The notes under the pieces were generated by a model that was not told the DNA's origin, did not search any database, and saw only the letters and a list, made by a program, of their open reading frames with translations. From assembly GCA_964412825.1 (NCBI GenBank), contig CAYPQH010000005.1:1-34397 (forward strand): DNA of 34,397 nucleotides, written 5' to 3'. The stretch's first letter is position 1. Each line of letters begins with the position of its first letter. The DNA comes from an uncultured Nitrospinaceae bacterium (GTDB lineage: Bacteria; Nitrospinota; Nitrospinia; Nitrospinales; VA-1). The position numbers and the translations under genes are program-made. Below are positions 8,091-22,800 of this stretch, in pieces.

Positions 8091-9371
8091 TTAATCTGAA
8101 GAACCTTTTGCCCAAGCAGAAAATACCACACATGCTTTTCCTTTAGGGTGTTTACATTCCTGCTCGGTGGAACGAGGCTCAATGACCGCAAAGCGAGTTT
8201 CACCGGATTGCAAATAATCCACCGCAATAAATCCTCCTGTTTTTCTGTTGGTGTGAGAAAAAAGCATCCCCTCACCCTGCCCCACCCTCGTCGCCCCCAA
8301 AGCCGACCCGGCACCACTGACCAGATGAAACATGCCCTTCCCGCCTTTGATGATCTGCAGACTGTGGTCGTGTCCTGCCGCGTAGATCAATGGAGTTGTT
8401 ATTTTTTCATAAGCCCTCTCAATAGCCTTCTCGATTTTCACTCGCATATTTTTGTAAACGGGGTTGTGCAAATCCTGACGGCCTGCAAAAACAGATTTTC
8501 GGATCATTTGTCGAGCAAGATGGATGGGACGGACCAGATCTCCCAGAGAATAATACCCTCCGTGGGTTCCATAGGATTTCAGGGGATGATGCGCCACCAG
8601 TAGGATGTGACGTTGTTTACTCGATTCCTCTTTAATGGTTTTTTCAAGGGAAGCAATGACTCCCGTTTCAGTCACTTGTTTGCATTCAGAAACATTGTCA
8701 CCCGCAACCGGTTTTTTGTATTCATGGAGCCACCATTGCGTGTCGAGCGCAATCAGCGCGACCTCCACCTTTGCTCCCAACAAAGGAACCGTGACAGGAC
8801 CGGGGCAACCATTTTTGGGAACCAGATCAACATTCGCCTTTTTCGTTTTTCGCCAATTGGTTAAATGTTTTCTCAGGTTATTGACCCGTTTCCAGCCTTT
8901 TCGGCCTCCATTATCCCAATCATGATTGCCCGGAACAAAAAGCCCCCTCGCACCGCTTCTTTTCAACACTCCGATCTGCGCGTCGATCCTTTGTTCTGCA
9001 CAGGCCCGGCTTTCGCAGGCTTTGTCGATACCGAAAAAGTTCTGGTCCTCATCGGGTAATCCTGCATCATAAATATTATCCCCCAAAAAAACGATGGCCG
9101 TACGATCTGGAGCCAATTCCGCAAAATATTCAAGCGTCTTCAAAAGAGGAGACGGCGCGGGACTTTTGTTGTCATTTACAACGAGAGCACCCGCATCCCC
9201 AACCAGAAGAACCCTGTAGCCTACCTCGCCCTTTTCAAGGGGTGCCTGCAAACACGGTTCGTCTTGACAATACACGTGGGAGTCATCAGAGGGAGAACCA
9301 CTGCAGGAAGCGATGGCGATCAGCGTTGAGGATACTGCAATATTTACGATTTTAGTTATAATAGGAAACAA
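8091..9371 (-). CDS. Calcineurin-like metallophosphoesterase, probable lipoprotein
   Basis: Complete metal-ligand motif set VGDAG, FLGDNIY, PGNHDW, VAHHP and AGHDH. Lipobox-like LIAIASC near the N-terminus. Confidence 0.85.
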   Translation of the reverse strand: MFPIITKIVNIAVSSTLIAIASCSGSPSDDSHVYCQDEPCLQAPLEKGEVGYRVLLVGDAGALVVNDNKSPAPSPLLKTLEYFAELAPDRTAIVFLGDNIYDAGLPDEDQNFFGIDKACESRACAEQRIDAQIGVLKRSGARGLFVPGNHDWDNGGRKGWKRVNNLRKHLTNWRKTKKANVDLVPKNGCPGPVTVPLLGAKVEVALIALDTQWWLHEYKKPVAGDNVSECKQVTETGVIASLEKTIKEESSKQRHILLVAHHPLKSYGTHGGYYSLGDLVRPIHLARQMIRKSVFAGRQDLHNPVYKNMRVKIEKAIERAYEKITTPLIYAAGHDHSLQIIKGGKGMFHLVSGAGSALGATRVGQGEGMLFSHTNRKTGGFIAVDYLQSGETRFAVIEPRSTEQECKHPKGKACVVFSAWAKGSSD

Positions 9372-9486: not shown

Positions 9487-10224
9487 ATGTTGAAAGTTTG
9501 CTTCACCGTCGATGTGGAACCGGACTGCTTGCCCTATATGAACACGTTCCGGGGAATGGAGGAAGGAACCGACTCGCTTCTTCAGGTTTTGGATGAAGAG
9601 AATGTTCCCGCCACTTTTTTCACCACCGGGCAGATCGCGGAAATGTTCCCTGAAAAGGTGGAAAAAATTGTTTCATCGGGGCATGAGCTGGGAAGCCATG
9701 GGTTTTCTCATACGGATTTCACAACGCTCGATAAAACCAGTGCGGCGGAAGATATTGCGAAGTCTACCAAAACCCTTCGGCAATTTTCCCCGGTGACTTC
9801 CTTCAGGGCGCCTTATCTTAAATTCCCGGATGCCTATCTGGGATTACTCGAAAATGACGGTTTTCTTCTGGATTCTTCCCAGGCCAAATACAAACTTGCC
9901 TATTATCAAAAATCAATTTCCACTTCACTCAAGCGGATTCCCGTATCCATGAGTTCCTCGCACCTTCGCTTCCCTCAATGGATATGCAAGCCTTATCTGA
10001 ATTTTCTGTCGAGTCCCGTCGTGTTGTACGTCCATCCCTGGGAATTCGTCGATTTGAGGAATACAAAACTACGGTTTGACTGTAGATTTAAAACCGGGCA
10101 AATCGCCCTCGATTGCCTCCGTTCCGCTCTCAGGCATTTTAAACAAAAAAATGCTCAATTTCTGAAAATGAAAGATGTGGATTCCGACAAAACCCAGACC
10201 GCCGGAGAAGAAAAATACTCTTAA
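9487..10224 (+). CDS. Polysaccharide deacetylase family protein (CE4/NodB-like)
   Basis: FTVDVE, ATFF, HELGSHGFSH, FRAPY and YVHPWE motifs. No signal peptide. Confidence 0.9.
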   Translation: MLKVCFTVDVEPDCLPYMNTFRGMEEGTDSLLQVLDEENVPATFFTTGQIAEMFPEKVEKIVSSGHELGSHGFSHTDFTTLDKTSAAEDIAKSTKTLRQFSPVTSFRAPYLKFPDAYLGLLENDGFLLDSSQAKYKLAYYQKSISTSLKRIPVSMSSSHLRFPQWICKPYLNFLSSPVVLYVHPWEFVDLRNTKLRFDCRFKTGQIALDCLRSALRHFKQKNAQFLKMKDVDSDKTQTAGEEKYS

Positions 10225-10258
10225 AAAAGCACCACTCTGAACAACTTCTACCCCATCC

Positions 10259-11263
10259 ATGACCTCGGCTTTACATTCTAAAAATAAAAGGTTGCTATAC
10301 ATCCTGGCCTGGACTGTAGCGTCGGTGTGCATATATTTCGCAGTCCAAAAACTTCAATGGAATTCCGTTTGGGAGGAATTAAAAAATGCCAGCGTTTTTT
10401 GGGTGTCTTTGGCGGTTGCCGGTAATTTTTGCATCCTGATTTTCGGGACCCTGCAATGGCTCAACTTTCTTCCCAAAAATTATCATGTGGGATTTCCGAG
10501 AATGCTGGAGGTCAACGCGCTTGTGGCCATGACGAGCAACACCGTGCCTTTTTTAGCCGGTCACGCGCTTGCGGTTGTTCTTCTGGCCAAGCGGGAAAAG
10601 GTGGGGCATGCCGTCGCTTTATCGGTGATCGCGTTGGACCAGTTAGCCGAGGGATTCGCCAAGCTCTCGCTTTTCCTTTTGGTCGCCGTTCTCACCCCGG
10701 TTCCCGACTGGATGCGGCAGGGTATTCTGCTCGCGTTGTCGGCCATTCTTTTACTTTTCGGGGTGCTATTTTTTTTCGCGTTTCGACATCGGCATTTTAA
10801 AGTTTTCATGGGAAAAAAGTCCCATCCCCGCTGGTATAAAGTCTGGCATTTTGTTTCCCGCTGGGCTCATCATCTGGAAGCTCTGAGAAGCGTCCGGATT
10901 TTTTCCGTGGGTATGGGAACGGCTCTGGCAATGAAAGGTGCTGAAGTTTTCGCGATATGGGCGATTCAAAAAAGCCTTGGCGTGGATTTGCCGCTATGGA
11001 CCATTTTTTTGGTCCTCGCCTCAGTAAGTCTGGTGACCATGGTTCCTGTGTCTCCCGGCAACCTGGGAGTTTACGAAGCTGCCGTTTTTTTTGTTTATCA
11101 ATACCTGGGGTTGCCCGCTGAACAAGCGTTGGGGTTGGCTATCCTGCAACACGTTTGCCTTCTGATCCCCAGTATCGGGACGGGATACCTCATCCTGATA
11201 TATCGAAATTTTTATCCCATTCGCCCCCATCAGGCCAAAGAAGAAATTTCACAGGCGGAATAA
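10259..11263 (+). CDS. UPF0104 / lysylphosphatidylglycerol-synthase TM-region (flippase-like) membrane protein
   Basis: About 8 TM segments, SNTVPFLAG and the VPVSPGNLGVYE signature. Confidence 0.85.
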   Translation: MTSALHSKNKRLLYILAWTVASVCIYFAVQKLQWNSVWEELKNASVFWVSLAVAGNFCILIFGTLQWLNFLPKNYHVGFPRMLEVNALVAMTSNTVPFLAGHALAVVLLAKREKVGHAVALSVIALDQLAEGFAKLSLFLLVAVLTPVPDWMRQGILLALSAILLLFGVLFFFAFRHRHFKVFMGKKSHPRWYKVWHFVSRWAHHLEALRSVRIFSVGMGTALAMKGAEVFAIWAIQKSLGVDLPLWTIFLVLASVSLVTMVPVSPGNLGVYEAAVFFVYQYLGLPAEQALGLAILQHVCLLIPSIGTGYLILIYRNFYPIRPHQAKEEISQAE

Positions 11264-11264
11264 T

Positions 11265-12410
11265 CTACCCGGTCGAATCACGTCTCATCCTTATCGCCTT
11301 TTGATACACTGCTTCGTGCAGTTTTATAACCTCTTTCCAGTCAAAAGGAGGCTCTGTCTCCCGATTGTTACGGGCGATGGATTCTCTAAGTTCAGGCTCT
11401 AGAATCAAACGAACCAGGTGGTCCTCCATTTCCTGATCGGTCTGCGCCAAAAACCCCTCCTTGCCAGACCGGATGAACCCTTTGACCCCCCCATGAATTT
11501 TCGCCACAACAGGCAACCCCGCGCAACGGGCCTCAAGAGCGGCAATACCGAAGGATTCCCATCGCGTGGGTTGAACATAAATATCCGTTCTGGAAAATAA
11601 TTTTCGTATCTCATCACGGCTACGGTATCCGGGAAGTTCTACAATATGTTCCAATCCTAAACGTTTGATCTGTTTTTCCAGGGCAGTCCGTTTGGGTCCT
11701 TCGCCAATGATCTTTACTTTTATGCGGATGTTTTCCGGCAGACGCTTAATGACATTTGGCAGTAATCCCACCAAAGCCTTGCCCCGTTTTTTGCGGAACA
11801 ATCGCATGACAGAAACAATCCACACTTCCTGCCGGTCTCTTTCAACGGGAGTCCCTTTCCATTCGCACACATTCAACGCATTGGGCAATACGATAGCAGT
11901 CTGATTTTTTACCAGGGAGGCAACGTCTCTAACGACCACCTCGCTCACACCGGAAAATAAAACCGGCCAACGGGACCATTTAAACACCCCGTCCAATAAA
12001 GCCAGCCCCCAACGATACGGACCTATGATGGAATCCCAGGTGATGACTGCGGGAATCCCAAGCTTCTGGCTCAAATAAAGGCTTCCATAGGAAGTGGGAG
12101 AAATAATATTGCAGTGGCAATGAACAATATCGAAGGCTTCTTTTTTTAATATGGATTCAATTTTTCTAAACGCGCTTCGAGTATAAACACAACGAGCATA
12201 GGGCAATAAGGGAACGTTTAATCGGTGGATGCGAAATTTTTCACCCTTCTCACTGCCCGGAATCGGGGTGATCACATGAACCTCGTGGCCCGCTTGAGAG
12301 AGTCGATCAGCTAAATCCTGCATGTGCATCTCTGTCCCGCCCATTTGCGGCAAAAACCAGTCGCAGATCAAGGCTATCTTAAGCTTATGGGAAAGAACCG
12401 AATCCGTCAT
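11265..12410 (-). CDS. Glycosyltransferase family 4, PIG-A/PimA-like
   Basis: N-terminal IALICDWFLPQMGGTEMHMQDLADRLSQAGHEVHVIT, RLFRKK, and the GT4 ExFGxxxxE motif (WESFGIAALEARCAGLPVV). Confidence 0.9.
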   Translation of the reverse strand: MTDSVLSHKLKIALICDWFLPQMGGTEMHMQDLADRLSQAGHEVHVITPIPGSEKGEKFRIHRLNVPLLPYARCVYTRSAFRKIESILKKEAFDIVHCHCNIISPTSYGSLYLSQKLGIPAVITWDSIIGPYRWGLALLDGVFKWSRWPVLFSGVSEVVVRDVASLVKNQTAIVLPNALNVCEWKGTPVERDRQEVWIVSVMRLFRKKRGKALVGLLPNVIKRLPENIRIKVKIIGEGPKRTALEKQIKRLGLEHIVELPGYRSRDEIRKLFSRTDIYVQPTRWESFGIAALEARCAGLPVVAKIHGGVKGFIRSGKEGFLAQTDQEMEDHLVRLILEPELRESIARNNRETEPPFDWKEVIKLHEAVYQKAIRMRRDSTG

Positions 12411-12692
12411 CGTCTTGAAATTTCATGTTCACGAAAGATAAAAGCCTCGTGACAAAGTTTTTAATAAACGTCCGTTTGGAAAGAACGGGCGGAACTCCCA
12501 CACCAAAACCCATCAAAGGGCCAGCCAAGCCCACGGGAATTAAACCGGGTACAACCTTGTACACGAACTGCTGTGGATGGTATTATGGGAATTGCTTTGA
12601 AATCAATGCAAATTTGGCAGGTCACTGAAATAGTTCCTAAATTTTTTCGACAAATCATTTTCTCTTTAAAATTACCTGAACAGGAGCCACAG

Positions 12693-13373
12693 TTGACAAT
12701 TCATCGGTATGGCATCTTCTTGGCCATTTCCATATTAACGATTTTTCCTGGTTTCTCCTTATTAACCGGTTCTTTGGCTCTCGCGACCCACTCAGAGCAA
12801 ATGGAAAGTATCGATGAAGGCCGTTGGGTATTCATAAATGGTGAAGGCGTCATCGACGCTCCTCTCAGCATTGTGGAGGATCATTTCAGGGATGTCCAAA
12901 AATCAGACTCCATGATTCCAGGGCTTAAAATAAAAAAAATATTAAAACAAATTTCCACTAGTGAACGCATCGATTACGATCATTATGGATTGCCCTGGCC
13001 TTTTAAAGATCGGTACACGATTTACCGTGCCAAGGCAAAATACGTCGCCGAACGAGAAATCCTCATAACTCTGAACTCTATCGATAACTACCCTTTCGAG
13101 GACAATAAAAAAGTTTCGGCCCGAATAAAAGAAAGCAGTTTTCTGTTAAAATCCCTGCCGGAAGATGAAACGAAAACCAGGGTCACTATAAAGTTGAAAC
13201 TGAACCCCGGCGGATTTTTGCCAATCTGGCTCATCAATTTAAACGCCAACAATTGGTCGAAAGATTTTTTTAGAAATTTACGGAAAAATATCAGAAAAGA
13301 AATGGCCCAACAAAAAATTTCTGAGACAAACTGGACCCGAAGCTTGAATACAAGCCCATCCTCCAGTTTTTAA
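12693..13373 (+). CDS. Exported START-domain lipid-binding protein
   Basis: START signatures LPWPFKDRY and LNPGGFLPIWLIN. The ORF opens at 12573, but an in-frame TTG at 12693 follows aggag (12682-12686) and gives a clean signal peptide ending ...SLALA. Confidence 0.75.
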   Translation: MTIHRYGIFLAISILTIFPGFSLLTGSLALATHSEQMESIDEGRWVFINGEGVIDAPLSIVEDHFRDVQKSDSMIPGLKIKKILKQISTSERIDYDHYGLPWPFKDRYTIYRAKAKYVAEREILITLNSIDNYPFEDNKKVSARIKESSFLLKSLPEDETKTRVTIKLKLNPGGFLPIWLINLNANNWSKDFFRNLRKNIRKEMAQQKISETNWTRSLNTSPSSSF

Positions 13374-13439
13374 GAACGTTTCCAGAAACGCATATTGCCC
13401 CTTCAGGCTTAACGATTTATTTGCAGGCAACCCATAGCA

Positions 13440-14501
13440 ATGGAAAATCCGGATTTCATTCATGTCACTTATCCCCAACCCCACCTTGGGCGCAGGAAGG
13501 AAATTTTAAAAAAGTATCCAGAGGTCAAAAAACTTTTCGGGCCCACTCCTTCGACGGCAATATGGACCCTTGGAATTGTAGTGTTGCAGTTTTCAATCGC
13601 CATTGCCTTACAGAATACCGCATGGTGGCTTGTTCTTCTGACGGCCTGGGGGATTGGCGCGTTTTGCGAGCACGCTTTATTCGTCATCATCCACGAATGT
13701 TCGCACAATCTGGCTTTCAAGCGCGTTTCCTGGAACAAGGCCCTTGGGGTCATCGCCAATATTCCGGGATTTTTTCCCGCCGCCATCGGCTTTCGCAATT
13801 ACCATTTACTGCATCATCGGGATCTTGCGGAACCCGGTTGGGACGCCGACATTCCAGGACCCAAGGAAGCTGACTGGGTGGGAAACAGCGCCTTCCGCAA
13901 AGCGCTCAGTTTATTTTTCTTCTTCGCGATTCAGGGAATCCTCCGACCCGCCCGTTTAAAAAAAATTAACCTGCTGGAATCCTGGGGACTGATCAACGGA
14001 ATTTCTTCCATAGGCGCAGGCCTATTGATCCTCTATCTGTTTGGAGCGTCGTCCTTCTGGTATCTGGTTCTATCCTGCATTTTTGCGATTGGCCTCCACC
14101 CTCTTGGCGGTCGGTGGATTCAGGAGCATTATCTTTTCAAACCGGGGCAGGAAACCTACTCTTACTATGGCCCCCTAAACAAATTGTGCTTTAACATGGG
14201 GTATCACAATGAGCATCACGACTTTATGGGAATCCCCTGGTCGCGGCTTCCCAAAGTACGGAAAATGGCCCCGGAATTTTATGACAACCTTTTTTATCAC
14301 ACCTCCTGGATCAAGGTTCTTGTCCAATTTATCTTTGATCCCAACTTTACCTTTTTCAGCCGCATCGTTCGCCCCGACCACGAAGAAAAGACCTCGAAAA
14401 AAATGACGACGCGGGAAACCGATGAAATCAGCGAGGGAGTCATGAATTCGGTTCGGGAAGACCCTGCAACAATACCTGTCAGCCCGGCCAATTCAGAATG
14501 A
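13440..14501 (+). CDS. Sphingolipid delta-4 desaturase / C4-hydroxylase (DEGS1/DES1-like)
   Basis: N-terminal Lipid_DES-type segment DFIHVTYPQPHLGRRKEILKKYPEVKKLFGP. His boxes HECSH, HLLHH and HNEHH. ETYSYYGPLNKLCFNMGYHNEHHDF...LPKVRKMAPEFYDNL closely follows the eukaryotic DES1 consensus. Confidence 0.88.
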   Translation: MENPDFIHVTYPQPHLGRRKEILKKYPEVKKLFGPTPSTAIWTLGIVVLQFSIAIALQNTAWWLVLLTAWGIGAFCEHALFVIIHECSHNLAFKRVSWNKALGVIANIPGFFPAAIGFRNYHLLHHRDLAEPGWDADIPGPKEADWVGNSAFRKALSLFFFFAIQGILRPARLKKINLLESWGLINGISSIGAGLLILYLFGASSFWYLVLSCIFAIGLHPLGGRWIQEHYLFKPGQETYSYYGPLNKLCFNMGYHNEHHDFMGIPWSRLPKVRKMAPEFYDNLFYHTSWIKVLVQFIFDPNFTFFSRIVRPDHEEKTSKKMTTRETDEISEGVMNSVREDPATIPVSPANSE

Positions 14502-15507
14502 TTTTTCCGGTGGACTCCCTCATCTCCAGAAACTCATGCGCCTCGGCGATCTGATCTGCCGGGAAGACTCCGCCCACCTTCGGACTCAGCTCTCCTTTTT
14601 CGGTCAAACCCACCACAGCTTGCATGCAACGTTGCAAAACTTCGGGCCGGCCTTCCGCGATACGAAGCATATTGACTCCGAGGACGCTTTTGGAATTGGA
14701 GATCAGCGCAAGGCTGTGAAAAATCCCAAACCCCAGCACGGTCCGCAAAATACGAGGGAAATTCAGGCGATGTCCCGTCATTCCCGCCACGCCGCAAACC
14801 ACGATCCTGCCGCCGGAACCTAAGAGGTTGTATCCTTTGCGGAAAGTTTTACCGCCGATAGAATCAAACACAACATCCAATCCCCGGTGGCCCGAGACTT
14901 TTTGGACCACCTTCGCAAAGTCTTCTTGCCGATAATTTATGCGATGATCGACGCCCAGACTTTTGAGGTAATCGAGTTTGGCTTCGGAACCTACGGTTGC
15001 AAAAACAACGCAACCCCGACGTTTGGCGATTTGCACAAGAGCCGTCCCGACTCCGCCCGCACCTGCCTGAATGAGAACGTGGTCTCCCGCCTTGAGGCGA
15101 ACCATTTCCTCCGCCGCGTACCAGGCCGTGCAATACTGGGTGGCGAGCGCCGCCGCGACACCGGCAGGCATCTCTTCGGGGATTTTCACGTTTGTGGTCC
15201 AATGGGCCACGATTGTGTCGGCGTACCCTCCAAATCGAGTGAACGCCAGCACCCGGTCGCCTGCATTCAATGCCTCAACCCCAGCCCCCACTCCTGCTAT
15301 CCGGCCCACCACCTCATAACCCAGAACGCAAGGTTTCCCGGGCGCATCGGGATAAAGCCCGCGCCGTGCCAGAACATCCGCGAAGTTTAGCCCGGAGGCT
15401 TCCACTGTGATCAAGACTTCGCCGTCACCTGGCACAGGGTCTTTTGCCTCGCGCATTTCAAACGCAGTTTTCGAGTCACCGTTACGAACCAGATAGATGG
15501 ATTTCAT
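14479..15507 (-). CDS. Medium-chain dehydrogenase/reductase (NADPH:quinone reductase / enoyl reductase, VAT-1-like)
   Basis: GLNFADVLARRGLYP, VLGYEVVG, VLIQAGAGGVG, GLDVVFDSIGG and a C-terminal STGKIIL. No Zn-ligand cysteine pattern. Confidence 0.9.
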   Translation of the reverse strand: MKSIYLVRNGDSKTAFEMREAKDPVPGDGEVLITVEASGLNFADVLARRGLYPDAPGKPCVLGYEVVGRIAGVGAGVEALNAGDRVLAFTRFGGYADTIVAHWTTNVKIPEEMPAGVAAALATQYCTAWYAAEEMVRLKAGDHVLIQAGAGGVGTALVQIAKRRGCVVFATVGSEAKLDYLKSLGVDHRINYRQEDFAKVVQKVSGHRGLDVVFDSIGGKTFRKGYNLLGSGGRIVVCGVAGMTGHRLNFPRILRTVLGFGIFHSLALISNSKSVLGVNMLRIAEGRPEVLQRCMQAVVGLTEKGELSPKVGGVFPADQIAEAHEFLEMRESTGKIILNWPG

Positions 15508-15598
15508 TTTTTTATGATATTGTAGCCGGAATTATTTTTAATGAATTTTTAATGCTAGGCATTTAAAGTGCGCGTTCACAACCTCTAAGGATTTCTGA

Positions 15599-16591
15599 AT
15601 GCCGGAAACAGATCAAGTTCAAGACCCTGCCATGCCAGCCGATTCAACACTATTCACCTTGTATGAGCAATGGTTGATCTGGTGGAAAAATCGCTCCCTA
15701 AAGCAAAAAATTTTACCGCTGGTTTTTTTGGCAGGTTTCTGGGGGCTCCACATAAGCATGGGCGGTTTTCGGACAGACCACCTCGTGGTCATTTTCCTTG
15801 CACTCGCTTATTATGGAGGACCTCGCACGCAAAACCTTTTCTGTTTCTTCCTCCCTTTTACTCTGTATCTGACCCTGTATGACAGTCAGGGCTATTACGC
15901 GGAATGGCTACGCGGGGATGTCCGGGTTGCGGAGCCTTATCAGTTCGACATGACGTTTTTTGGCATTGAAACTTCCGAGGGAAGGCTCCTGCCCAGCCAA
16001 TGGTTACAAAACCACACCTACCCGGCTTTGGATGTCATCACAGGCCTGTCCTATATAATTTTCATTCCCGTATTTTTGGCGGTGGGCCTTTATTTTCGGT
16101 TCGGATTGGCAAAAATGAAGAACAACCGCCTGAGTCCTGAACGCATCCGAATAAAGACCCATGCTTTAATGTGGGGCATGTTCTGGTTGAACATCATCTG
16201 CTGTTCCACTTATTACTGGTATCCCGCCGCCCCGCCCTGGTATGTGGATATTTATGGTTTGGGTCCCGCGCAATTGGACGCGGCCCCCAGCGCGGCGGGG
16301 GCCCTGAGATTTGACGCTATTTTAGGCGTTAATTTATTTGCCGATCTTTACGCGAAGTGCCCGAATATTTTTGGCGCCATACCCTCTCTCCACGTGGCCT
16401 TTCCTTTGCTCTCCGTGTACTTCGCTTTTAAGTTAACATCGCTTCGCGTTTTCTGTCTGGGTTTTTACCTGCTGATCTCCTTTTCCGCCGTTTATCTCAA
16501 CCATCACTACATATTAGATATTCTTTGGGGCTCTGCCTATGCCCTGCTTGTGGCGTGGGCGATGGACAGGTATTACTGTGTCCAGAAATGA
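15599..16591 (+). CDS. PAP2-superfamily Aur1/Ipt1-like inositol-phosphorylceramide synthase
   Basis: YPAAPPWY, AAGALRFD, FGAIPSLH and AVYLNHHYILD motifs (catalytic H, H, D) in a polytopic membrane protein. Confidence 0.85.
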   Translation: MPETDQVQDPAMPADSTLFTLYEQWLIWWKNRSLKQKILPLVFLAGFWGLHISMGGFRTDHLVVIFLALAYYGGPRTQNLFCFFLPFTLYLTLYDSQGYYAEWLRGDVRVAEPYQFDMTFFGIETSEGRLLPSQWLQNHTYPALDVITGLSYIIFIPVFLAVGLYFRFGLAKMKNNRLSPERIRIKTHALMWGMFWLNIICCSTYYWYPAAPPWYVDIYGLGPAQLDAAPSAAGALRFDAILGVNLFADLYAKCPNIFGAIPSLHVAFPLLSVYFAFKLTSLRVFCLGFYLLISFSAVYLNHHYILDILWGSAYALLVAWAMDRYYCVQK

Positions 16592-16775
16592 CCGCGCCCA
16601 CTGCAACCCTCCGGGGTTTCCGGTTTTTATGAACCCAAAAAATTGCATCACAAAACTTCATTGATGACAAGTAGTTACAACGCCTTTTATCAAGTGACTT
16701 TTTACCGGTGAATAGTATAATGGCCCCCTGCTGACACCAAGAACCCAATATTATTTCACTTGGAAGAAATTACCA

Positions 16776-17600
16776 TTGACTGCCATCTCCCCTAAAACAA
16801 TTGATCGCGTTCTGGTCGTCCTGCCCACTTACAACGAAGCCGATTCCTTGGTAAAAGTGATGGACGCGATACTAAAATTACCTGAGGATCTGGATATCCT
16901 CGTGGTGGATGATTCCTCGCCCGACGGCACCGCCGATCTGGTAAAAAATCATGCGGCTTTTGACAAACAGATTTTTCTGTTACTGCGGCCCAGCAAGCAG
17001 GGGCTTGCCACAGCTTACAAGGAAGGGTTCCAATGGGGGTTGAAGCAGGGATATGACGTGTGCATGGAAATGGACAGCGACCTTTCCCATGATCCTAAAG
17101 ATATTTCCCGTTTACGGCAAACCATCGTGGAGGGAGCCGACATCGCCATTGGCTCACGCTATTTAACTGGCATCAGCGTCATCAACTGGCCGCTCAGGCG
17201 ATTGATGGTCAGCATCGGTGCCGGAATCTATACGCGATGGATATCCGGCCTGCCGCTCACCGACCCCACAGGAGGGTTCAAAGCGATCCACCGAAATGTA
17301 ATCGAAAGCCTCGACTGGACAAAGATAAAAAGCGACGGCTATGGGTTTCAAATCGAAGTGAGCTTTTTTGCTCATAAAAAAGGCTTCATCCTGAAAGAGA
17401 TCCCCATCATATTTACCGAGCGACGCGATGGGGAATCCAAATTTTCTCTGTCGATCGCGGTCGAGGCTGCCATTCGAGTCCTGCAACTTGGAATATTCGA
17501 ACGCTTCCAAAAATCCAAAAAGGCTTCCCCAACTTCCTTCGCCAGAGACCTGTACGAAACCGGGAAAACCCAGCACCACGGTGAAGAGAAGACAGGCTGA
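16776..17600 (+). CDS. GT2 polyprenol-monophosphomannose synthase (Dpm1/Ppm1-like)
   Basis: PTYNE, VVDDSSPDGT, MDSDLSHDP, IGSRY, DPTGGFK, GYGFQIE and EIPIIFTERRDGESK. TTG start. Confidence 0.9.
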   Translation: MTAISPKTIDRVLVVLPTYNEADSLVKVMDAILKLPEDLDILVVDDSSPDGTADLVKNHAAFDKQIFLLLRPSKQGLATAYKEGFQWGLKQGYDVCMEMDSDLSHDPKDISRLRQTIVEGADIAIGSRYLTGISVINWPLRRLMVSIGAGIYTRWISGLPLTDPTGGFKAIHRNVIESLDWTKIKSDGYGFQIEVSFFAHKKGFILKEIPIIFTERRDGESKFSLSIAVEAAIRVLQLGIFERFQKSKKASPTSFARDLYETGKTQHHGEEKTG

Positions 17601-17672
17601 CCCCGCTACGCGGGGGAGAAAATTCCGTACGGATAAAAAATCCAGCGCTTGTGATATCCCTCCATTGCCTTC

Positions 17673-19208
17673 ATGCCTTGGGAAAGTAATGCAACAGAAC
17701 ACAGTCAACCTATGAATCCATCGCGTGCTAATACCGGGTCCCGCGACACACGGGCCAGCCATCAGAACCGCTGGTGGAATTCAAAAACCGTCCTCTTGGC
17801 TTTGGCCCTGCATGTATTTCTTTTTCTGGGCCTGTTCCAGTTGAGTTACCCGCCCGATGAGTGGAAACGTATCGAAACAGCCTATTTGGAACAATCCATT
17901 GGAGACGCGGCCAACCTCATCAAGCGGGAGCATGGGCTTTTCGGATTTGTGGTCTGGTACTACAACACCCACGGTGAAGCGGAGTTGTATTACCGTTATG
18001 CCAAACTGACTTTGTTCGGGGATGCCGAGCACTGGACAAAAAACACGAACCTGAAAATCGAAAATGAACGCCCCTGGCCTTATCGCGATATCCCCATCGA
18101 ATACCAACCTGGAGCTTTGCTGGCAATCTCACTGCCAGCATTATTTGCCGATGATTTCAAGGGATACCAATACTGGCTGGGCGGTTGGTTCGGATTCCTT
18201 CACCTGCTGAACCTTTTCATGGGCATCAAACTCATTACCGGTAGTTCTCCCACTGTTTCCCAGATGAACCGGTTGCTCTGGTGGTCTCTCGCGTTTTTAA
18301 TTTTTTTAGGCGGTTTGGTCACGTCCAGGTTCGACCACATCGTGGTGACCTTTGTTTTGCTCTCCACACTGTTATTCGGCCAAGCTTTGCAAAAGGAAGG
18401 AACACGATCGTTAATGGGTTTTGTACTTTTTGGTTTCGTCACGTCGATCGGAGTGTTGACCAAGATCGTTCCGGGCCTCGTCATGATTTCAGCCACGCTG
18501 ATGTTACTCGTCATGCAGAAAAAAACTCCACGCTGGGCGGCAGCTTGCGCCTCGGCAACAGGCCTGGGAGTGGGGCTCATTGTTCTCAATGCAGGGTTTT
18601 ATGCCCTCTTTGGCCCCGGCTATCTGGAAAGCTTTACTTATCATATGGACCGGGGAATTCAACTGGAGTCGGTTTATGCGGGGGTCCTGCTACTGGCCAG
18701 AATGGCGGGTCTGACTATCGTGACGTATGATTATTCCTTCGGGTCTTCAAATGTGATCTCAACTTTCACCAACGAGGTCAAGCTCATTTCCCCTTTTCTA
18801 TTTTTTGGAATCGTGGCTTTTCTCGGAATAAAAGTCTGGCGCGATCGCCAGCCGGAAAGCAAGGCTCCCGAACATTTTATTCACAGCCAGTTCATCATGA
18901 TGACCCTGATCCTGCTCTTTGCGTTCATGCTCACCAACAAGGTCTTTTCCCCGCAATACATGATATGGGTCGGACCGTTGATGGCCGTTCTGGTTGCCGT
19001 TCACCAAAACTTGTGGAAAATTGGCATTTTGTTATTGATCGCGACTGCGATGACCCAGATACTTTACCCTCAGCTGTATATTTTTCTGGAACACTTTCAT
19101 CCGGCTCTGGTCATTGTTTTGAACCTGCGCAATGCATTGCTCATCGTTATCCTGGTCCTGCTGATTCGGGAACTGCCAGGATTAATAGAGAAAAATCACT
19201 CCTCCTGA
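17673..19208 (+). CDS. GT87-like (GT-C fold) polyprenol-phosphate-sugar-dependent glycosyltransferase
   Basis: PYRDIPIEYQPGAL, SRFD, LTKIVP, YHMDRGIQLES and NKVFSPQYMIW motifs with many TM segments. The start may be the ATG at 17712. Confidence 0.75.
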   Translation: MPWESNATEHSQPMNPSRANTGSRDTRASHQNRWWNSKTVLLALALHVFLFLGLFQLSYPPDEWKRIETAYLEQSIGDAANLIKREHGLFGFVVWYYNTHGEAELYYRYAKLTLFGDAEHWTKNTNLKIENERPWPYRDIPIEYQPGALLAISLPALFADDFKGYQYWLGGWFGFLHLLNLFMGIKLITGSSPTVSQMNRLLWWSLAFLIFLGGLVTSRFDHIVVTFVLLSTLLFGQALQKEGTRSLMGFVLFGFVTSIGVLTKIVPGLVMISATLMLLVMQKKTPRWAAACASATGLGVGLIVLNAGFYALFGPGYLESFTYHMDRGIQLESVYAGVLLLARMAGLTIVTYDYSFGSSNVISTFTNEVKLISPFLFFGIVAFLGIKVWRDRQPESKAPEHFIHSQFIMMTLILLFAFMLTNKVFSPQYMIWVGPLMAVLVAVHQNLWKIGILLLIATAMTQILYPQLYIFLEHFHPALVIVLNLRNALLIVILVLLIRELPGLIEKNHSS

Positions 19209-19852
19209 TCCTTTTCTGCAAGCTGGTTCCTAACGTAAAGGATTCTTTGCACAGCCGTATAATTACCCAGAGCGGCGATAATTAAAATAGTACCTATCAT
19301 AATAAAAGGGCCCACGACAGGAAGACCCGCCAATAATGAGCCCAATATTAGAAGGGCCAGACGTTCCGGCCTTTGCATCCAGCCGATCTTGCAATCGACG
19401 CCCAAACCTTCGGCTCGGGCACGCGTGTAACTGACCATGAACGAACCCGACAATGCCAGAAGAATGATCATTACCACTACGGACCCAAGCGCCGACTCCG
19501 GGTTTTCTCGGGACAGGCTGGAAAAATGCCAGGCCAGACCCAGAAAAATAAACAACTCGCTGAACCGGTCTATGGAACTGTCCAGAAAAGCCCCAAACAG
19601 GGAAATTTTACCGGTCAGTCTCGCCATTTGGCCATCCAGCACGTCGCATGTTCCTGCTAGAATCAGGATCAACCCCGCGCAAAAAAATGAACCCCCTGCA
19701 TAAATCAACCCGGAGATCATACTCAGAGACAAACCCGCCAGGGACAGAGCGTTGGGGCTCACGCCCAGGCCGGAAAGAAAACGGCAGAAAGGCGCAATCG
19801 CCTGAACAAAGCCCTCCTTGATTTTTTCACTCAATATGGAAAACTCCGACAT
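19196..19852 (-). CDS. CDP-alcohol phosphatidyltransferase, PI/PIP-synthase-like
   Basis: SPNALS, the family signature DVLDGQMAR...FGAFLDSSIDR, and SYTRARAEGLG...GWMQRPER typical of the PIP-synthase/archaetidylinositol-phosphate-synthase subgroup. Confidence 0.88.
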   Translation of the reverse strand: MSEFSILSEKIKEGFVQAIAPFCRFLSGLGVSPNALSLAGLSLSMISGLIYAGGSFFCAGLILILAGTCDVLDGQMARLTGKISLFGAFLDSSIDRFSELFIFLGLAWHFSSLSRENPESALGSVVVMIILLALSGSFMVSYTRARAEGLGVDCKIGWMQRPERLALLILGSLLAGLPVVGPFIMIGTILIIAALGNYTAVQRILYVRNQLAEKDQEE

Positions 19853-19889: not shown

Positions 19890-22800
19890 TCATCCTCCAG
19901 ATTTCTGCGTTGCCTGACTCCCATTGCCCGCGACAGTCAAGGGTGCGTCCTCATCCTGTTCCTCCTCGTCGTCATCGTCCTCCTGGTTTTTGATTTCCTC
20001 CAACAACCAGGGAACCATTTGATCGATGCTGGGTCCCCCCAGAAAACGCACAACCGGAACGGTGATTTGTAAATCCGTTTCGATTCGGACAATCAACTCC
20101 ATGGCCATGAGTGAATCGAGACCCAAATCTGTCAGCGGGAGATCCATTTCAAGCTTGGATGGGGACAATCTTAAAACCCTTGCGATAGACTCCTTGAGAT
20201 GTTCTCCAAGAATCTCGGTTCGCTCTTCAGGAGAAGCCGCCAATAGTTTGGCCCGGATGAGATCATCGCCTTCCATGTCTCCAGCGTTCTCACCCTGGAC
20301 ATCATCCCCCAGCACATAAGAAAACCTTGGCGGGTTGGAACCCGAACGACTGAGAGAAAGCAGTTTTTTCCAATCCACTGGAAAAATACCGGTTTGAACC
20401 GGATTTTTATGCATCATTCGACCCAGCATCAGAACCGCCTGCCGGGAAGTCAGACTCATCAACCCCTGGCTCTCCAGACTTTTGATCAAGCCTTTTTGCC
20501 TGGCCGCCACCCCCACACCAGACAAGGGACCCCAGTCGATCACCTGTCCTGAATGACCCTGAGCCCTGCGATATCGGGCCAACGACTCGAGGAAAGCATT
20601 GGCGGCCACATAGTTTGCCTGTCCCGGATTGCCCACCACATTTGCCACCGATGAGAACATGACGAAAAAATCCAACGACTTGGTTTGTTGATGCAGGTTC
20701 CAGGCTCCGTGAACTTTCGCGGCCATGACTCGTTTGAAACGCTTTGGAGTCAGATGAATCATGAGGCCGTCGTCCAGGACAACCGCACCGTGCATGATTC
20801 CCTTTAGTGACGGCATGTTGGATTCGATCTCCTGCAATATTCGGCTGACATCTTCCGCCTGAGAAACATCGCCCCGGACCACCCGAACCACTGCCCCCTG
20901 CTCCTCCATTTGGGTGATGGCCGACTGCGCTTCCTTAGAGAGTGTCTCGCTCCGGCCCATGAGCGCGAGATGCCTTGCTCCCTGCTCAACCATCCACCCG
21001 GCAATGGCCAACCCAAAACCCCCCAGGCCGCCGGTGATCAGATACGTAACATCGGCCGAAAACTTTATTGAAACATCTTCATCCTGGGAGATTTTTAAAT
21101 CCGGTTCTTCCAGAGACAAAACCACTTTCCCCATATGTCTGGCCTGAGCCATAGTGCGAAAAGCGTCCACCGCATTGGATATGGGAAACACACGATTGGG
21201 AAGCGGATGCAGGTTGCCTTCCCCCATGTGGCGCATGATTTCCGTAAAAATAGCGCGAAACTCGTTGCCCAGAGATAAAAACCCCTGCTTGATGTCCACC
21301 ATGGTGATGAACGAAATTCCCTTCAAAAAGGGTCGCAATCCTAATTTGTTATTTTCATAGATATCGCGTTTTCCGATTTCCAGAAAACGGCCCAGGGGCT
21401 TGAGAATTTCAATGCTTTTAAAAATAAATTTACCGGCAAGTGAATTCAAAACCAGATCCACACCTTCGCCTCCGGTCTGATCCATGATCTGTTCCGCAAA
21501 GGCAAGCGATCGGGAATCGAAAATGTGTTTCACTCCCAGATCGCGAAGGAAACCTCTTTTTTCGTCATTGCCTGCGGTGGCAAACACTTCCGCACCGGCA
21601 AGCTGGGCAATTTGCACCGCCGCCATTCCCACGCCGCCTGATGCCGCGTGGATCAAAACCCGTTCGCCCTTTTTCAGGTTGCCCGCAGAATGCAACATGT
21701 ACCAGGCGGTTAAAAAAGTCACCGGGATGGTGGCGGCGTCTTCAAAACTGATCTGTTTCGGTTTGTGCGCCGTGGCAAACGCCGGAGCCATCGTGTAAGA
21801 ACCGAAGCATCCGCCTCCTGAAAGAGCCGCCACTTCATCTCCAACCTGAAAGCCCTGCACGCCTTCGCCCACTCTGCTCACCACTCCCGAACACTCCAAC
21901 CCCAGTGTCTCCCAAGTGTTTTTCACGCCTTCGAGCTCACCGGGAAGCAGCCCCAAGCCGATCATCACGTCTCGAAAATTAAGGCCCGCCGAACACACTC
22001 TGATTTCCAGTTCGCCCGGACCGGGCCGGGAACGCTCAAGAGACCGGAGCTTGAAATTTTCCAGAATTCCGGGCGTTCCGATGTCCATGACGAAAGACGG
22101 CACCTCTGTTTTTTCACCTCGGACAAAACCATCCGCAGAAATTTCTTTGGGCTCCGGGCGATGCAAACGACAAACAAATCGCCCATTTTGACGTAACGCA
22201 ATTTCTTCTTCCTTGTCATTTTTCCACAGCTCATCAAACAACGCGCTCGCCGGGTCGGCCCCGACTTCAGGGTCGAGGTCTACAATCTTGCATTTGAAAT
22301 TGGATTGCTCGGACTGGATCACCCGGCCAATTCCCCAAACCGGGCCCTGCGCCACCGAAATATTTTTTTCGTTGGGTTGCACGAGTTGAGCGCCCCGGGT
22401 GACGATGAAAAGCCTGGGCGCTTTGGACCATTTAGTATGGCTGAGTTCATTGATGAGATAAATAACGCTCATATTCCCGAGAGATTCCATTTTTTGCAAG
22501 GAGCTTAACGACAGACCCTCGGTCTCAGGCAAATCCACATTCCATAAATGAACGATCCCGCGCAGCGCAGGCCCTTGCTTTCTCACCAGATCAATCAAAT
22601 CCCCCATGTCTTCCAGGGAATCCGGCCGCATTTGTATTTGCCCGCCCTCGCCTGCTGTAAACTCTTCTCCGGGAGACACAAGAAAACAATTTTCGCCCTG
22701 GCTTTTTAAGGATTCGGCCAGAGCCTGCCCCACTCCTTTACTGTCATTGAATAGCAACCAACTGCCTTTTTTATTGGGTCCGGGGTTTTTAGTTTCCTGT

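Follow-up and report, generated by a model that had tools for sequence, protein, structure and literature searches.

A conserved Nitrospinota gene cluster that may build an amino-sugar inositol lipid by steps resembling early GPI synthesis

The window analysed here is a 34,397-nucleotide stretch of contig CAYPQH010000005.1 (assembly GCA_964412825.1) from an uncultured Nitrospinaceae bacterium of the phylum Nitrospinota, whose genome bin holds 1.84 Mb in 140 contigs and is 68% complete. Ten genes are packed into positions 9487-19852, among them those for a retaining glycosyltransferase of family GT4, a CE4 deacetylase and an MprF-type flippase-like membrane protein. The strongest new result is that the family to which this GT4 belongs is paired with a de-N-acetylase drawn from two unrelated enzyme families. 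Around it we build a model, given even chances of being correct, in which an N-acetylhexosamine (HexNAc) is added to phosphatidylinositol (PI) or inositol phosphoceramide (IPC), de-N-acetylated, flipped and then mannosylated.

Early synthesis of glycosylphosphatidylinositol (GPI) proceeds by transfer of N-acetylglucosamine (GlcNAc) to PI (PIG-A), de-N-acetylation (PIG-L), flipping, and mannosylation by GT-C enzymes that depends on dolichol-phosphate-mannose (Dol-P-Man). A reading of the window made from its sequence alone had arrived at a GPI-like interpretation of the cluster; the in silico tests that could have sunk it all favoured it, and all of this support is computational.

Results

The GT4 family keeps a de-N-acetylase

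Open reading frames (ORFs) in the window were listed and their proteins searched against Pfam and NCBIfam profiles. The family assignments, the synteny, the links of the GT4 to a deacetylase and to a phosphatidylinositol-phosphate (PIP) synthase, the presence of inositol-phosphate synthases and the fold class of the GT-C enzyme are computed results. The CE4 and flippase-like genes form a two-gene unit with a gap of 34 bp, and the convergent GT4 gene is separated from the flippase gene by 1 bp, an arrangement that the sequence-only reading had described and that the ORF layout displays.

Neighbourhoods of the GT4 family were compared at 56 loci, among the matches listed, from a species-genome collection; this set holds no Nitrospinota. 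A de-N-acetylase gene neighbours the GT4 at 48 of the 56. At 44 loci it belongs to the PIG-L/LmbE family, at a distance of at most 226 bp in 42 of them and of about 1.1 kb in the other 2; the assignment was checked on two example loci (Pfam PIG-L, E 1e-27 and 8e-27). At 4 loci the neighbour is a CE4 homologous to that of the window, and 8 loci, three of them cut off at the GT4, have neither deacetylase. As a control, none of 23 flavobacterial BshA-like loci, again among the matches listed, has an adjacent PIG-L or CE4 gene. That one GT4 family keeps a de-N-acetylase of two unrelated families argues that its members transfer an N-acetyl amino sugar. The proposal that CE4 serves as a non-homologous stand-in for PIG-L matches these neighbourhoods.

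The CE4 enzyme has HpPgdA as its best solved relative (3qbu, E 5e-14). Its translation contains no hydrophobic or transmembrane (TM)-like window, and it is therefore assigned to the cytoplasm, in agreement with the sequence-only reading. CE4 orthologs stand beside the GT4 also in Gemmatimonadota, Hoeflea and archaea.

Among loci L001-L055 of the matches listed, those of Actinomycetota (e.g., L010:9042-9983 and L013:9159-9998) have the GT4 next to a PIG-L/LmbE paralog distinct from MshB, and many of the carriers belong to the Streptosporangiaceae and Intrasporangiaceae. In Microbispora and Dactylosporangium, the PIG-L protein beside the GT4 scores 121-138 bits against an MshB cut-off of 224, and the true MshB is encoded elsewhere in the genome. 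Because actinomycetes with this GT4 have a true MshA and a true MshB elsewhere, the adjacent PIG-L is a paralog separate from MshB. Passages cited from the descriptions of Intrasporangium calvum (PMC3035309) and Thermobispora (PMC3035289) record glucosamine-containing phospholipids (type IV), for which the actinomycete GT4-PIG-L pair is a candidate maker. Supplementary files aside, our literature search found no structure or gene assignment for actinomycete glucosamine phospholipids.

The cluster is conserved in Nitrospinota

Of 120 Nitrospinota genomes sampled, ten encode a GT4 ortholog (identity of at least 50%), the window's own genome included; they are distributed over five genera and two families. 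A GT4 relative of 71% identity is labelled Nitrospinaceae. We took about 40 kb around the GT4 from the nine other genomes and mapped the window proteins onto them by tblastn. Gene order is retained in eight, down to a GT4 identity of 50%, and we therefore consider the arrangement to be more than chance. In 8 of the 9 the flippase-like gene is directly next to the GT4, the ninth genome being fragmented; the CE4 gene lies at the locus in six and on a separate contig in a seventh. The genes for the PAP2-family enzyme, the GT2 and the PIP-synthase-like protein are each within the cluster in eight of the nine, that for the GT-C in seven, and that for a START-like protein is near the GT4 in five. 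A polyketide synthase (PKS) gene adjoins the PIP-synthase-like gene in six of the nine, a medium-chain dehydrogenase/reductase (MDR) gene accompanies the desaturase gene in four, and a GNAT-like gene is likewise syntenic with the cluster. The relatives also carry additional genes: one or two further GT-C-like proteins (500-550 aa), lipid desaturases and hydroxylases, and short-chain dehydrogenases/reductases.

The genome sets of the GT4, the PIP synthase and the GT-C coincide over the 120 genomes, the exceptions being a single loss and a single fragmented bin. There are 11 genomes with a PIP-synthase ortholog, namely the ten with the GT4 and the fragmented G045, and ten with a GT-C ortholog, nine of which carry the GT4.

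Two relatives encode sulfatase-superfamily membrane proteins of about 680 aa between the CE4 and flippase genes (L104:11300-15423 and L112:4183-6225); by size and domain they may be EptA/LtaS-type enzymes. The ethanolamine-phosphate transferases of eukaryotic GPI synthesis belong to the sulfatase superfamily too. Adjoining the CE4 gene in the window and in four relatives is a gene for a calcineurin-like phosphoesterase (8091-9371, minus strand), which could be a pathway phosphatase; its N-terminal hydrophobic segment ends in a cysteine, so the protein is possibly a lipoprotein.

The GT4-CE4 module is linked to genes for inositol lipids

The inositol link of the GT4-CE4 module is real: the pair adjoins a PIP-synthase-like gene in three lineages, namely Nitrospinota, Hoeflea and Thermoproteota archaea. 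In Hoeflea, the PIP-synthase-like gene is directly upstream of the GT4 and an inositol-phosphate synthase gene lies about 9 kb from the GT4-CE4 pair; in a Desulfurococcales archaeon and a second archaeon, the contig with the pair also carries an inositol-phosphate synthase gene at a distance of a few kb. Both inositol-phosphate synthase and PIP-synthase-like genes are present in all five outside genomes tested that carry the GT4-CE4 pair. The window's genome has two inositol-phosphate synthase genes, found with PF01658 and confirmed by Pfam. PF07994 (NAD_binding_5) missed these enzymes in the window's genome and in five relatives, while PF01658 found all of them, so that a blank from PF07994 alone is not evidence of absence.

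The PIP-synthase-like protein scores 147.5 bits against a cut-off of 180 for the NCBIfam archaetidylinositol-phosphate (AIP) synthase and 133.4 against 170 for PIPSynth. Its five best Protein Data Bank (PDB) matches are all PIP synthases, including those of Renibacterium (5d92, E 1.2e-24) and Mycobacterium tuberculosis (PgsA1, 6h53, E 5.5e-21), and its alignment to the solved relatives contains conserved arginine-rich stretches.

The Desulfurococcales archaeon encodes a flippase-like protein, the GT4, the CE4 and an AIP synthase in one operon (L054:9166-12531). Of three further Thermoproteota genomes (L140, L141 and L142), two combine GT4 and CE4 with AIP synthase and the third has the GT4-CE4 pair; the Thermoproteota loci are candidates for the synthesis of archaeal hexosamine-inositol lipids. 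The Hoeflea locus continues, after its PIP-synthase-like, GT4 and CE4 genes, with a gene whose product has a Gly_transf_sug (DXD) domain (L038:12528-13364), which we take to be the family of the yeast mannosyl-IPC synthases. The window's genome has a second inositol locus (G000, contig C14; L124:1388-12075), where one of its two inositol-phosphate synthases is encoded as a 633-aa fusion with a nucleotidyltransferase. Also encoded there are a CDP-alcohol transferase of 434 aa, transcribed divergently, a sulfatase-superfamily membrane protein of 864 aa, a GDSL lipase and a YdjC-like protein. Frames of fused length (636-652 aa) numbered eight in the phylum search, seven of them in genomes with the GT4 cluster. 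In its layout the second locus is similar to the route by way of CDP-inositol that is put forward for Bacteroidetes in the passages cited of PMC9246714.

The flippase-like protein has six TM-like windows, and its gene adjoins the GT4 also in two Gemmatimonadota loci and in the archaeal operon. Adjacent genes for a glycosyltransferase, a cytoplasmic deacetylase and an MprF-like flippase, as in the GpgSDF and HexSDF modules, abut at 9487-12410 and are conserved. As described in the passages cited, gpgSDF makes glucosaminyl-phosphatidylglycerol (GlcN-PG) in Pseudomonas aeruginosa (PMC12713373) and hexSDF an aminohexosyl glycolipid in Clostridioides difficile (PMC10128005). The synthase, cytoplasmic deacetylase and MprF-like flippase logic is common to all three, and GpgS is also a GT4. 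The window module could be a self-contained, charge-modifying trio of this type whose substrate is not an inositol lipid but, for example, PG or a diacylglycerol glycolipid, and which merely stands beside an unrelated inositol-lipid and GT-C cluster. The products of those like-made trios speak for this, as does the Pfam name of the flippase-like family, which was originally defined on PG derivatives. A match of the window GT4 to the GlcNAc-PG synthase profile (GlcN_PG_synth, NF053787) points the same way, but it covers the C-terminal part only and reaches 39.1 bits against a cut-off of 480, because of which the GT4 is not a GpgS ortholog. The trio explanation is further weakened by the PIP-synthase-like gene adjoining GT4-CE4 in three unrelated lineages, one archaeal operon included, and by the narrow phylum distribution that the GT4, the PIP synthase and the GT-C have in common; we consider it unlikely, although no other alternative stands above it. 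The modules differ in other respects. GpgD is tabulated under COG3233 in PMC12713373; the acceptor in the window's pathway is predicted to be, most likely, an inositol lipid; and the window module is coupled to a polyprenol-phosphate-mannose (PPM) synthase and a GT-C, a coupling of which the passages cited of PMC12713373 and PMC10128005 make no mention.

Genes for the lipid backbone

The PAP2-family enzyme has a single NCBIfam match, NF052609 (PhinosDhcerSyn; E 9.7e-43, positions 16-280 of 305), at 146.7 bits against 480; it fails this equivalog cut-off and passes that of Pfam PAP2_3. The desaturase lies above the Pfam cut-offs of both Lipid_DES and FA_desaturase, in keeping with the delta-4 class, and its translation has three histidine boxes. 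The MDR protein scores 260 bits against 296.8 for the PIG3-type quinone oxidoreductase. The START-like protein has one N-terminal TM-like window; in an Atlas feature search its nearest clusters were those of START domains (score 0.94), which we treat as no more than a lead. Supplementary files aside, our literature search found no paper on inositol lipids or sphingolipids of Nitrospinota.

By the same feature search, likewise as a lead only, the GNAT-like protein is nearest to acyl-CoA N-acyltransferase clusters (score 0.98). It is a candidate ceramide synthase, or a candidate N-acylase of the freed amine. Deacetylation followed by re-acylation is the logic of LpxC/LpxD in lipid A synthesis and of NodB/NodA in Nod factor synthesis. 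By analogy, the GNAT-like enzyme might re-N-acylate the glucosamine with a PKS-made chain, in which case an N-acyl-glucosaminyl inositol lipid rather than the free amine would be the end product. Synteny joins the PKS and GNAT-like genes to the cluster, and each of the three Gemmatimonadota loci with a CE4 has a GNAT-like homolog (34-39% identity) no more than about 9 kb from its GT4-CE4 pair, so that the enzyme may re-acylate the amine rather than make ceramide. NodB is itself a CE4 enzyme, to which the window CE4 gives a sub-threshold match. Against this, no GNAT-like gene was found next to the GT4-CE4 pair at the archaeal or Hoeflea loci, and the protein has no NCBIfam match. It could equally be a bacterial ceramide synthase, described in the part of PMC11087976 cited here as a cytoplasmic acyltransferase without TM segments. 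We accord re-acylation the same low probability as the self-contained trio.

Identity of the GT4

The window GT4 has no TM-like window and falls below all NCBIfam cut-offs, with 109.5 of the required 273.7 bits for BshA and 69.8 of 462.5 for MshA. Its best PDB matches, BshA (E 6e-19) and PimA (E 1.5e-17), are about equally distant, and a PDB sequence search returned no eukaryotic PIG-A. Automatic names conflict among close relatives, which are called 'N-acetylglucosaminyl-phosphatidylinositol biosynthetic protein' or 'phosphatidylinositol alpha 1,6-mannosyltransferase'.

Two GT4 trees were built, one with FastTree and one under a mixture model, and a single clade of the bacterial family and the archaeal GT4s was put to an approximately unbiased (AU) test. 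The set comprised three MshA (chosen via TIGR03449), three PimA (from the pgsA1 operons of three actinomycetes), flavobacterial BshA-like proteins and archaeal GT4s, and did not include eukaryotic PIG-A. The PimA, MshA and BshA-like proteins each form a separate, long-branched clade with 100% support in both trees. The window GT4 lies in a bacterial family of its own (99% support) with Gemmatimonadota, Hoeflea and many Actinomycetota sequences; FastTree unites this family with the archaeal GT4s (support 85). A tree with PimA, MshA and BshA had been called for in the sequence-only reading, and in the tree obtained the GT4 stands outside all three. Identity of the GT4 with PimA, MshA, BshA or GpgS was ruled out by these clades and by the NCBIfam cut-offs.

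The sequence-only reading had also called the GT4 'PIG-A-like' from an N-terminal stretch, which is indeed present in the translation. Motifs CM1-CM12 of PIG-A were published by Oswal et al. 2008 (PMC2446393), and by eye the N-terminus resembles CM1, as given in Table 3 of that paper, at most, though not all, of the specified positions. The stretch is family-wide, with D17, P21, G24, G25 and E27 retained in the family consensus. The Pfam PIGA profile (PF08288), whose cut-off is 27 bits, gives 16.4 bits (E 0.015; positions 37-86 of 90) on the window GT4 and 17-28 bits on its relatives. It gives 29.6 bits on the GT4 of the archaeal operon and 31.0 bits on that of the archaeal locus L146, and PimA, MshA and BshA-like controls returned no match at E<=10. 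A search seeded with an archaeal PIGA-positive GT4 brought up only unnamed or archaeal-named proteins among its best 120 matches. Because the profile score is below cut-off, the tree was built without eukaryotic PIG-A and the motif match was made by eye, 'PIG-A-like' denotes an apparent resemblance and not membership; in that limited sense the label holds.

MshA transfers its sugar to inositol phosphate, and the GT4 might by analogy act on such a soluble acceptor, in the manner of MshA or BshA, to yield a soluble glucosaminyl-inositol metabolite or a preassembled head group. BshA gives its best match in both NCBIfam and the PDB, and MshA is matched too; a GT4 next to a PIG-L-type deacetylase follows MshA/MshB and BshA/BshB logic; and in Microbispora a gene resembling cysteinyl-tRNA synthetase (CysRS) lies 298 bp from the GT4. 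That neighbour is found in only one of the 56 loci among the matches listed, however, and the BshA and MshA scores are far under their cut-offs, with the GT4 outside both clades. The separate PIG-L paralog described above, with the true MshA and MshB elsewhere, and the presence of a flippase-like membrane protein within the bacterial as well as the archaeal module also speak against a soluble acceptor, which we judge to be improbable, more so than either of the two alternatives already discussed.

The sequence-only reading had named a PimA/PimE-like route as its alternative. In such a route to phosphatidylinositol mannosides (PIMs), the GT4 would be a GDP-mannose enzyme of the PimA/PimB type, the GT-C a PimE-type enzyme and the CE4 unrelated. 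The JGI automatic name of two close GT4 relatives is that of the mannosyltransferase, the PDB match to PimA is nearly as good as that to BshA, and PimE is among the best fold matches of the GT-C. The route nonetheless fails on the trees, in which PimA from three actinomycete pgsA1 operons is a separate clade with a branch length of 1.7-2.2, outside the family of the window GT4; moreover, a mannosyltransferase gives no reason for a de-N-acetylase neighbour in 48 of the 56 loci listed. We regard it as very improbable. Least probable of all is that the CE4 and GT4 act on polysaccharide or peptidoglycan, in exopolysaccharide or PNAG-like processing: the best family matches of the CE4 are polysaccharide and peptidoglycan deacetylases and several GT4 relatives bear the JGI name 'involved in cell wall biosynthesis', but the CE4 lacks a signal peptide or TM segment, its named matches are far under cut-off, the conserved partner genes encode lipid enzymes, and Pfam and NCBIfam searches found no polysaccharide polymerase or exporter among the ten genes.

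The GT2 and GT-C enzymes

The best solved relative of the GT2 is the dolichol-phosphate-mannose synthase (DPMS) of Pyrococcus furiosus (5mlz, E 3.4e-27), against about 3e-9 for ArnC; being closer to DPMS than to ArnC or GtrB, it probably belongs to the DPMS class, as the Dpm1-like label of the sequence-only reading implied. The 511-aa GT-C is part of a large family (2464 representatives at E<=0.001). It has no Pfam match of its own at E<=0.01, and among 102 aligned relatives 78 match GT87 and 21 match PIG-M; the aspartate D139 in its first loop is nearly invariant among relatives. Its AlphaFold (AF2) model (pLDDT 92.1, pTM 0.92) has as its top Foldseek match in the PDB the GPI mannosyltransferase I of Candida glabrata with Dol-P-Man (9wno_A, E 5.9e-5, TM-scores 0.56/0.68), followed in order by PIG-U and PimE, with ALG3 also behind them. 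The GT87-like label that the sequence-only reading gave to a gene near the GT4 is in keeping with the matches of the relatives and with a fold like those of GPI mannosyltransferase I and PimE.

Every gene named by the sequence-only reading within 9487-19208 is present at its coordinates by ORFs, Pfam and NCBIfam (Table 1). Five sequencing runs from two studies contain DNA near-identical to 9487-19208 (at least half of the sampled words), and three of the five are labelled hydrothermal vent metagenome; the DNA of the window may come from one of these three.

Table 1. Genes of the cluster and of the adjoining syntenic region in the window.
Feature	Position	Strand	Evidence and remarks
CE4 deacetylase, 245 aa	9487-10224	+	Pfam Polysacc_deac_1, 79.9 bits, E 1.9e-22
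MprF-type flippase-like membrane protein, 334 aa	10259-11263	+	Pfam LPG_synthase_TM, E 1.7e-38; TIGR00374, 64.8 bits (cut-off 43.2)
GT4 retaining glycosyltransferase	11265-12410	-	Pfam Glycos_transf_1 and Glyco_transf_4
START-like lipid-binding candidate, membrane-anchored, 266 aa	12573-13373	+	No Pfam or NCBIfam match; putative role
Sphingolipid delta-4 desaturase-like	13440-14501	+	Pfam Lipid_DES, E 6.5e-14, and FA_desaturase, E 1.2e-29
Medium-chain dehydrogenase/reductase (MDR)	14479-15507	-	Pfam ADH_zinc_N and ADH_N
PAP2-family phosphoinositol-(dihydro)ceramide synthase-like	15599-16591	+	Pfam PAP2_3, E 5.1e-14; NF052609 below cut-off
Polyprenol-phosphate-mannose synthase-like GT2	16776-17600	+	Pfam Glycos_transf_2, E 2.1e-27; 5mlz best solved relative
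GT-C glycosyltransferase, PIG-M / PimE (GT87) / ALG3 structural class, polytopic, 511 aa	17673-19208	+	Pfam matches of relatives; fold match
PIP-synthase-like CDP-alcohol phosphatidyltransferase	19196-19852	-	Pfam CDP-OH_P_transf; just beyond the range of the sequence-only reading
Type I PKS, 2557 aa, reducing, KS-AT-DH-MT-like-ER-KR-ACP	19890-27563	-	Pfam domains; syntenic, putative role in lipid chain supply
Acyl-CoA N-acyltransferase-like (GNAT-like), 378 aa	27841-28977	+	Weak Pfam Acetyltransf_1; no NCBIfam match

Discussion

Taken together, a model for the cluster emerges. Synthases encoded elsewhere in the genome would provide inositol phosphate, from which the PIP-synthase-like enzyme would make PI; the PAP2 enzyme may move the inositol-phosphate head group to ceramide, giving IPC, and the desaturase-like enzyme would desaturate the ceramide. 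At the cytoplasmic face, the GT4 would put an N-acetylhexosamine, most likely GlcNAc, on the inositol lipid and the CE4 would take off its acetyl group; the flippase-like protein would then carry the amino-sugar lipid to the periplasmic leaflet. There, the GT-C is predicted to add a hexose from polyprenol-phosphate-mannose, itself the presumed product of the GT2. We infer which sugar is donated and to which lipid, in what order the steps follow, in which direction the lipid is flipped, and that the GT-C acts on the same lipid.

Several observations weigh against this model. The gene neighbourhood cannot show that the GT-C acts on the product of the GT4, and the co-occurrence counts overstate independent support, since genomes of the same phylum are kin; they amount to few observations, not ten. 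In one congener (G047), all that remains of the CE4 is a 46-aa fragment encoded immediately upstream of the flippase (L098:17527-17664), and the GT-C is retained despite this decay. Another (G048, locus L096) lacks the CE4 as well as the GT-C, desaturase and MDR genes. The loss of the CE4 in two congeners implies that de-N-acetylation is not a universal prerequisite. The PIP-synthase-like and phosphoinositol-dihydroceramide (PI-DHC)-synthase-like proteins both score below their NCBIfam cut-offs, as the window GT4 does for Pfam PIGA. The mixture-model tree places the BshA-like clade between the bacterial GT4 family and the archaeal groups, and the AU test neither rejects nor establishes a single clade of the two (p 0.34). 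Finally, the passages cited of PMC9246714 describe a flippase-like gene that accompanies Bacteroidetes inositol clusters lacking a GT4 or CE4, so that the protein may flip plain inositol lipids.

The nearest parallel is eukaryotic GPI synthesis, to whose early part the predicted order and sidedness of the steps are equal; the best fold match of the GT-C is GPI mannosyltransferase I and the best match of the GT2 is a dolichol-phosphate-mannose synthase. The two systems differ in the deacetylase, which is a CE4 and not a PIG-L, and in the flippase-like protein, which is of the MprF type, whereas the passages cited of PMC9169118 give CLPTM1L as the eukaryotic scramblase. They differ also in the GT4, which is under the PIGA threshold, in the single GT-C of the window and in the lipid, which may be ceramide. 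A search for the GPI transamidase found no Peptidase_C13 above cut-off in any of five genomes, with one 18-bit match in G007. GPI-style protein anchoring is accordingly not supported, and the product is more probably a free surface glycolipid than an anchor for proteins.

The actinobacterial PIM and lipomannan (LM) pathway (PgsA1, PimA, PimB', PimE and Ppm1) likewise starts from PI made by a PIP synthase, uses a cytoplasmic GT4 first and continues outside with a PPM-dependent GT-C; PimE is a good fold match of the GT-C and M. tuberculosis PgsA1 a good sequence match of the PIP-synthase-like protein. The window GT4, in contrast, is not part of the PimA clade and is linked with a deacetylase, which makes an amino sugar rather than mannose the probable first sugar, and the host is a Gram-negative member of Nitrospinota with sphingolipid genes. 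Mycothiol and bacillithiol synthesis have in common with the model a GlcNAc transfer by a GT4 followed by a de-N-acetylase; their products, however, are soluble and require no flippase, and the window GT4 is outside both clades and under both cut-offs.

In Bacteroides, the inositol-lipid cluster described in the passages cited of PMC9246714 consists of a PI-DHC synthase (BT_1522), a PIP synthase (BT_1523), a myo-inositol-phosphate synthase (MIPS; BT_1526) and an LPG-synthase-like protein (BT_1521). The pair of PIP-synthase-like and PI-DHC-synthase-like genes with a flippase-like gene in the vicinity recurs in the window; the described cluster contains no GT4, CE4, PPM synthase or GT-C, and the window proteins score under the equivalog cut-offs.

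Glucosaminyl (GlcN)-archaetidylinositol occurs in methanogens. In Thermococcus barophilus, (N-acetyl)hexosamine is found on lipids with phospho-hexose or inositol head groups, according to the passages cited of PMC9294538. The archaeal lipids have in common with the product proposed here a hexosamine on an inositol or phospho-hexose head, and the archaeal operon is homologous to the window module; their core lipids, in contrast, are ethers. Our literature search, supplementary files aside, found no gene assignment for GlcN-inositol lipids in prokaryotes.

GPI anchors are, to our knowledge, regarded as a eukaryotic invention with mere hints in archaea. The PI-anchored glycolipids of bacteria that we are aware of belong mainly to the mannose-first PIM/lipoarabinomannan route of Actinobacteria, and we know of no demonstration of the GPI-start step order in bacteria. 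Tentatively, and with less confidence than in the model for the window itself, we suggest that the module of GT4 and de-N-acetylase makes glucosaminyl-inositol phospholipids across Bacteria and Archaea, with PIG-L as the deacetylase in Actinomycetota and CE4 in Nitrospinota, Gemmatimonadota, Hoeflea and Thermoproteota. Nitrospinota, in which the module is combined with a flippase, a polyprenol-phosphate-mannose synthase and a GT-C of the PIG-M/PimE class, might then build a Man-GlcN-inositol-phosphate lipid, which is the GPI-anchor core, on PI or ceramide, and the pathway could be a prokaryotic counterpart, possibly an antecedent, of the GPI pathway. The same tentative proposal would name the genes behind the glucosamine phospholipids of actinomycetes, long used in chemotaxonomy, and behind archaeal GlcN-archaetidylinositol.

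If true, the proposal would provide a testable prokaryotic model for the origin of the GPI pathway and would add inositol lipids to the range of the recently found aminolipid modules of synthase, deacetylase and flippase. A further gain would be candidate genes for the type-IV glucosamine phospholipids of actinomycetes and for archaeal hexosamine-inositol lipids. For the little-studied marine Nitrospinota, it predicts an unusual zwitterionic surface glycolipid.

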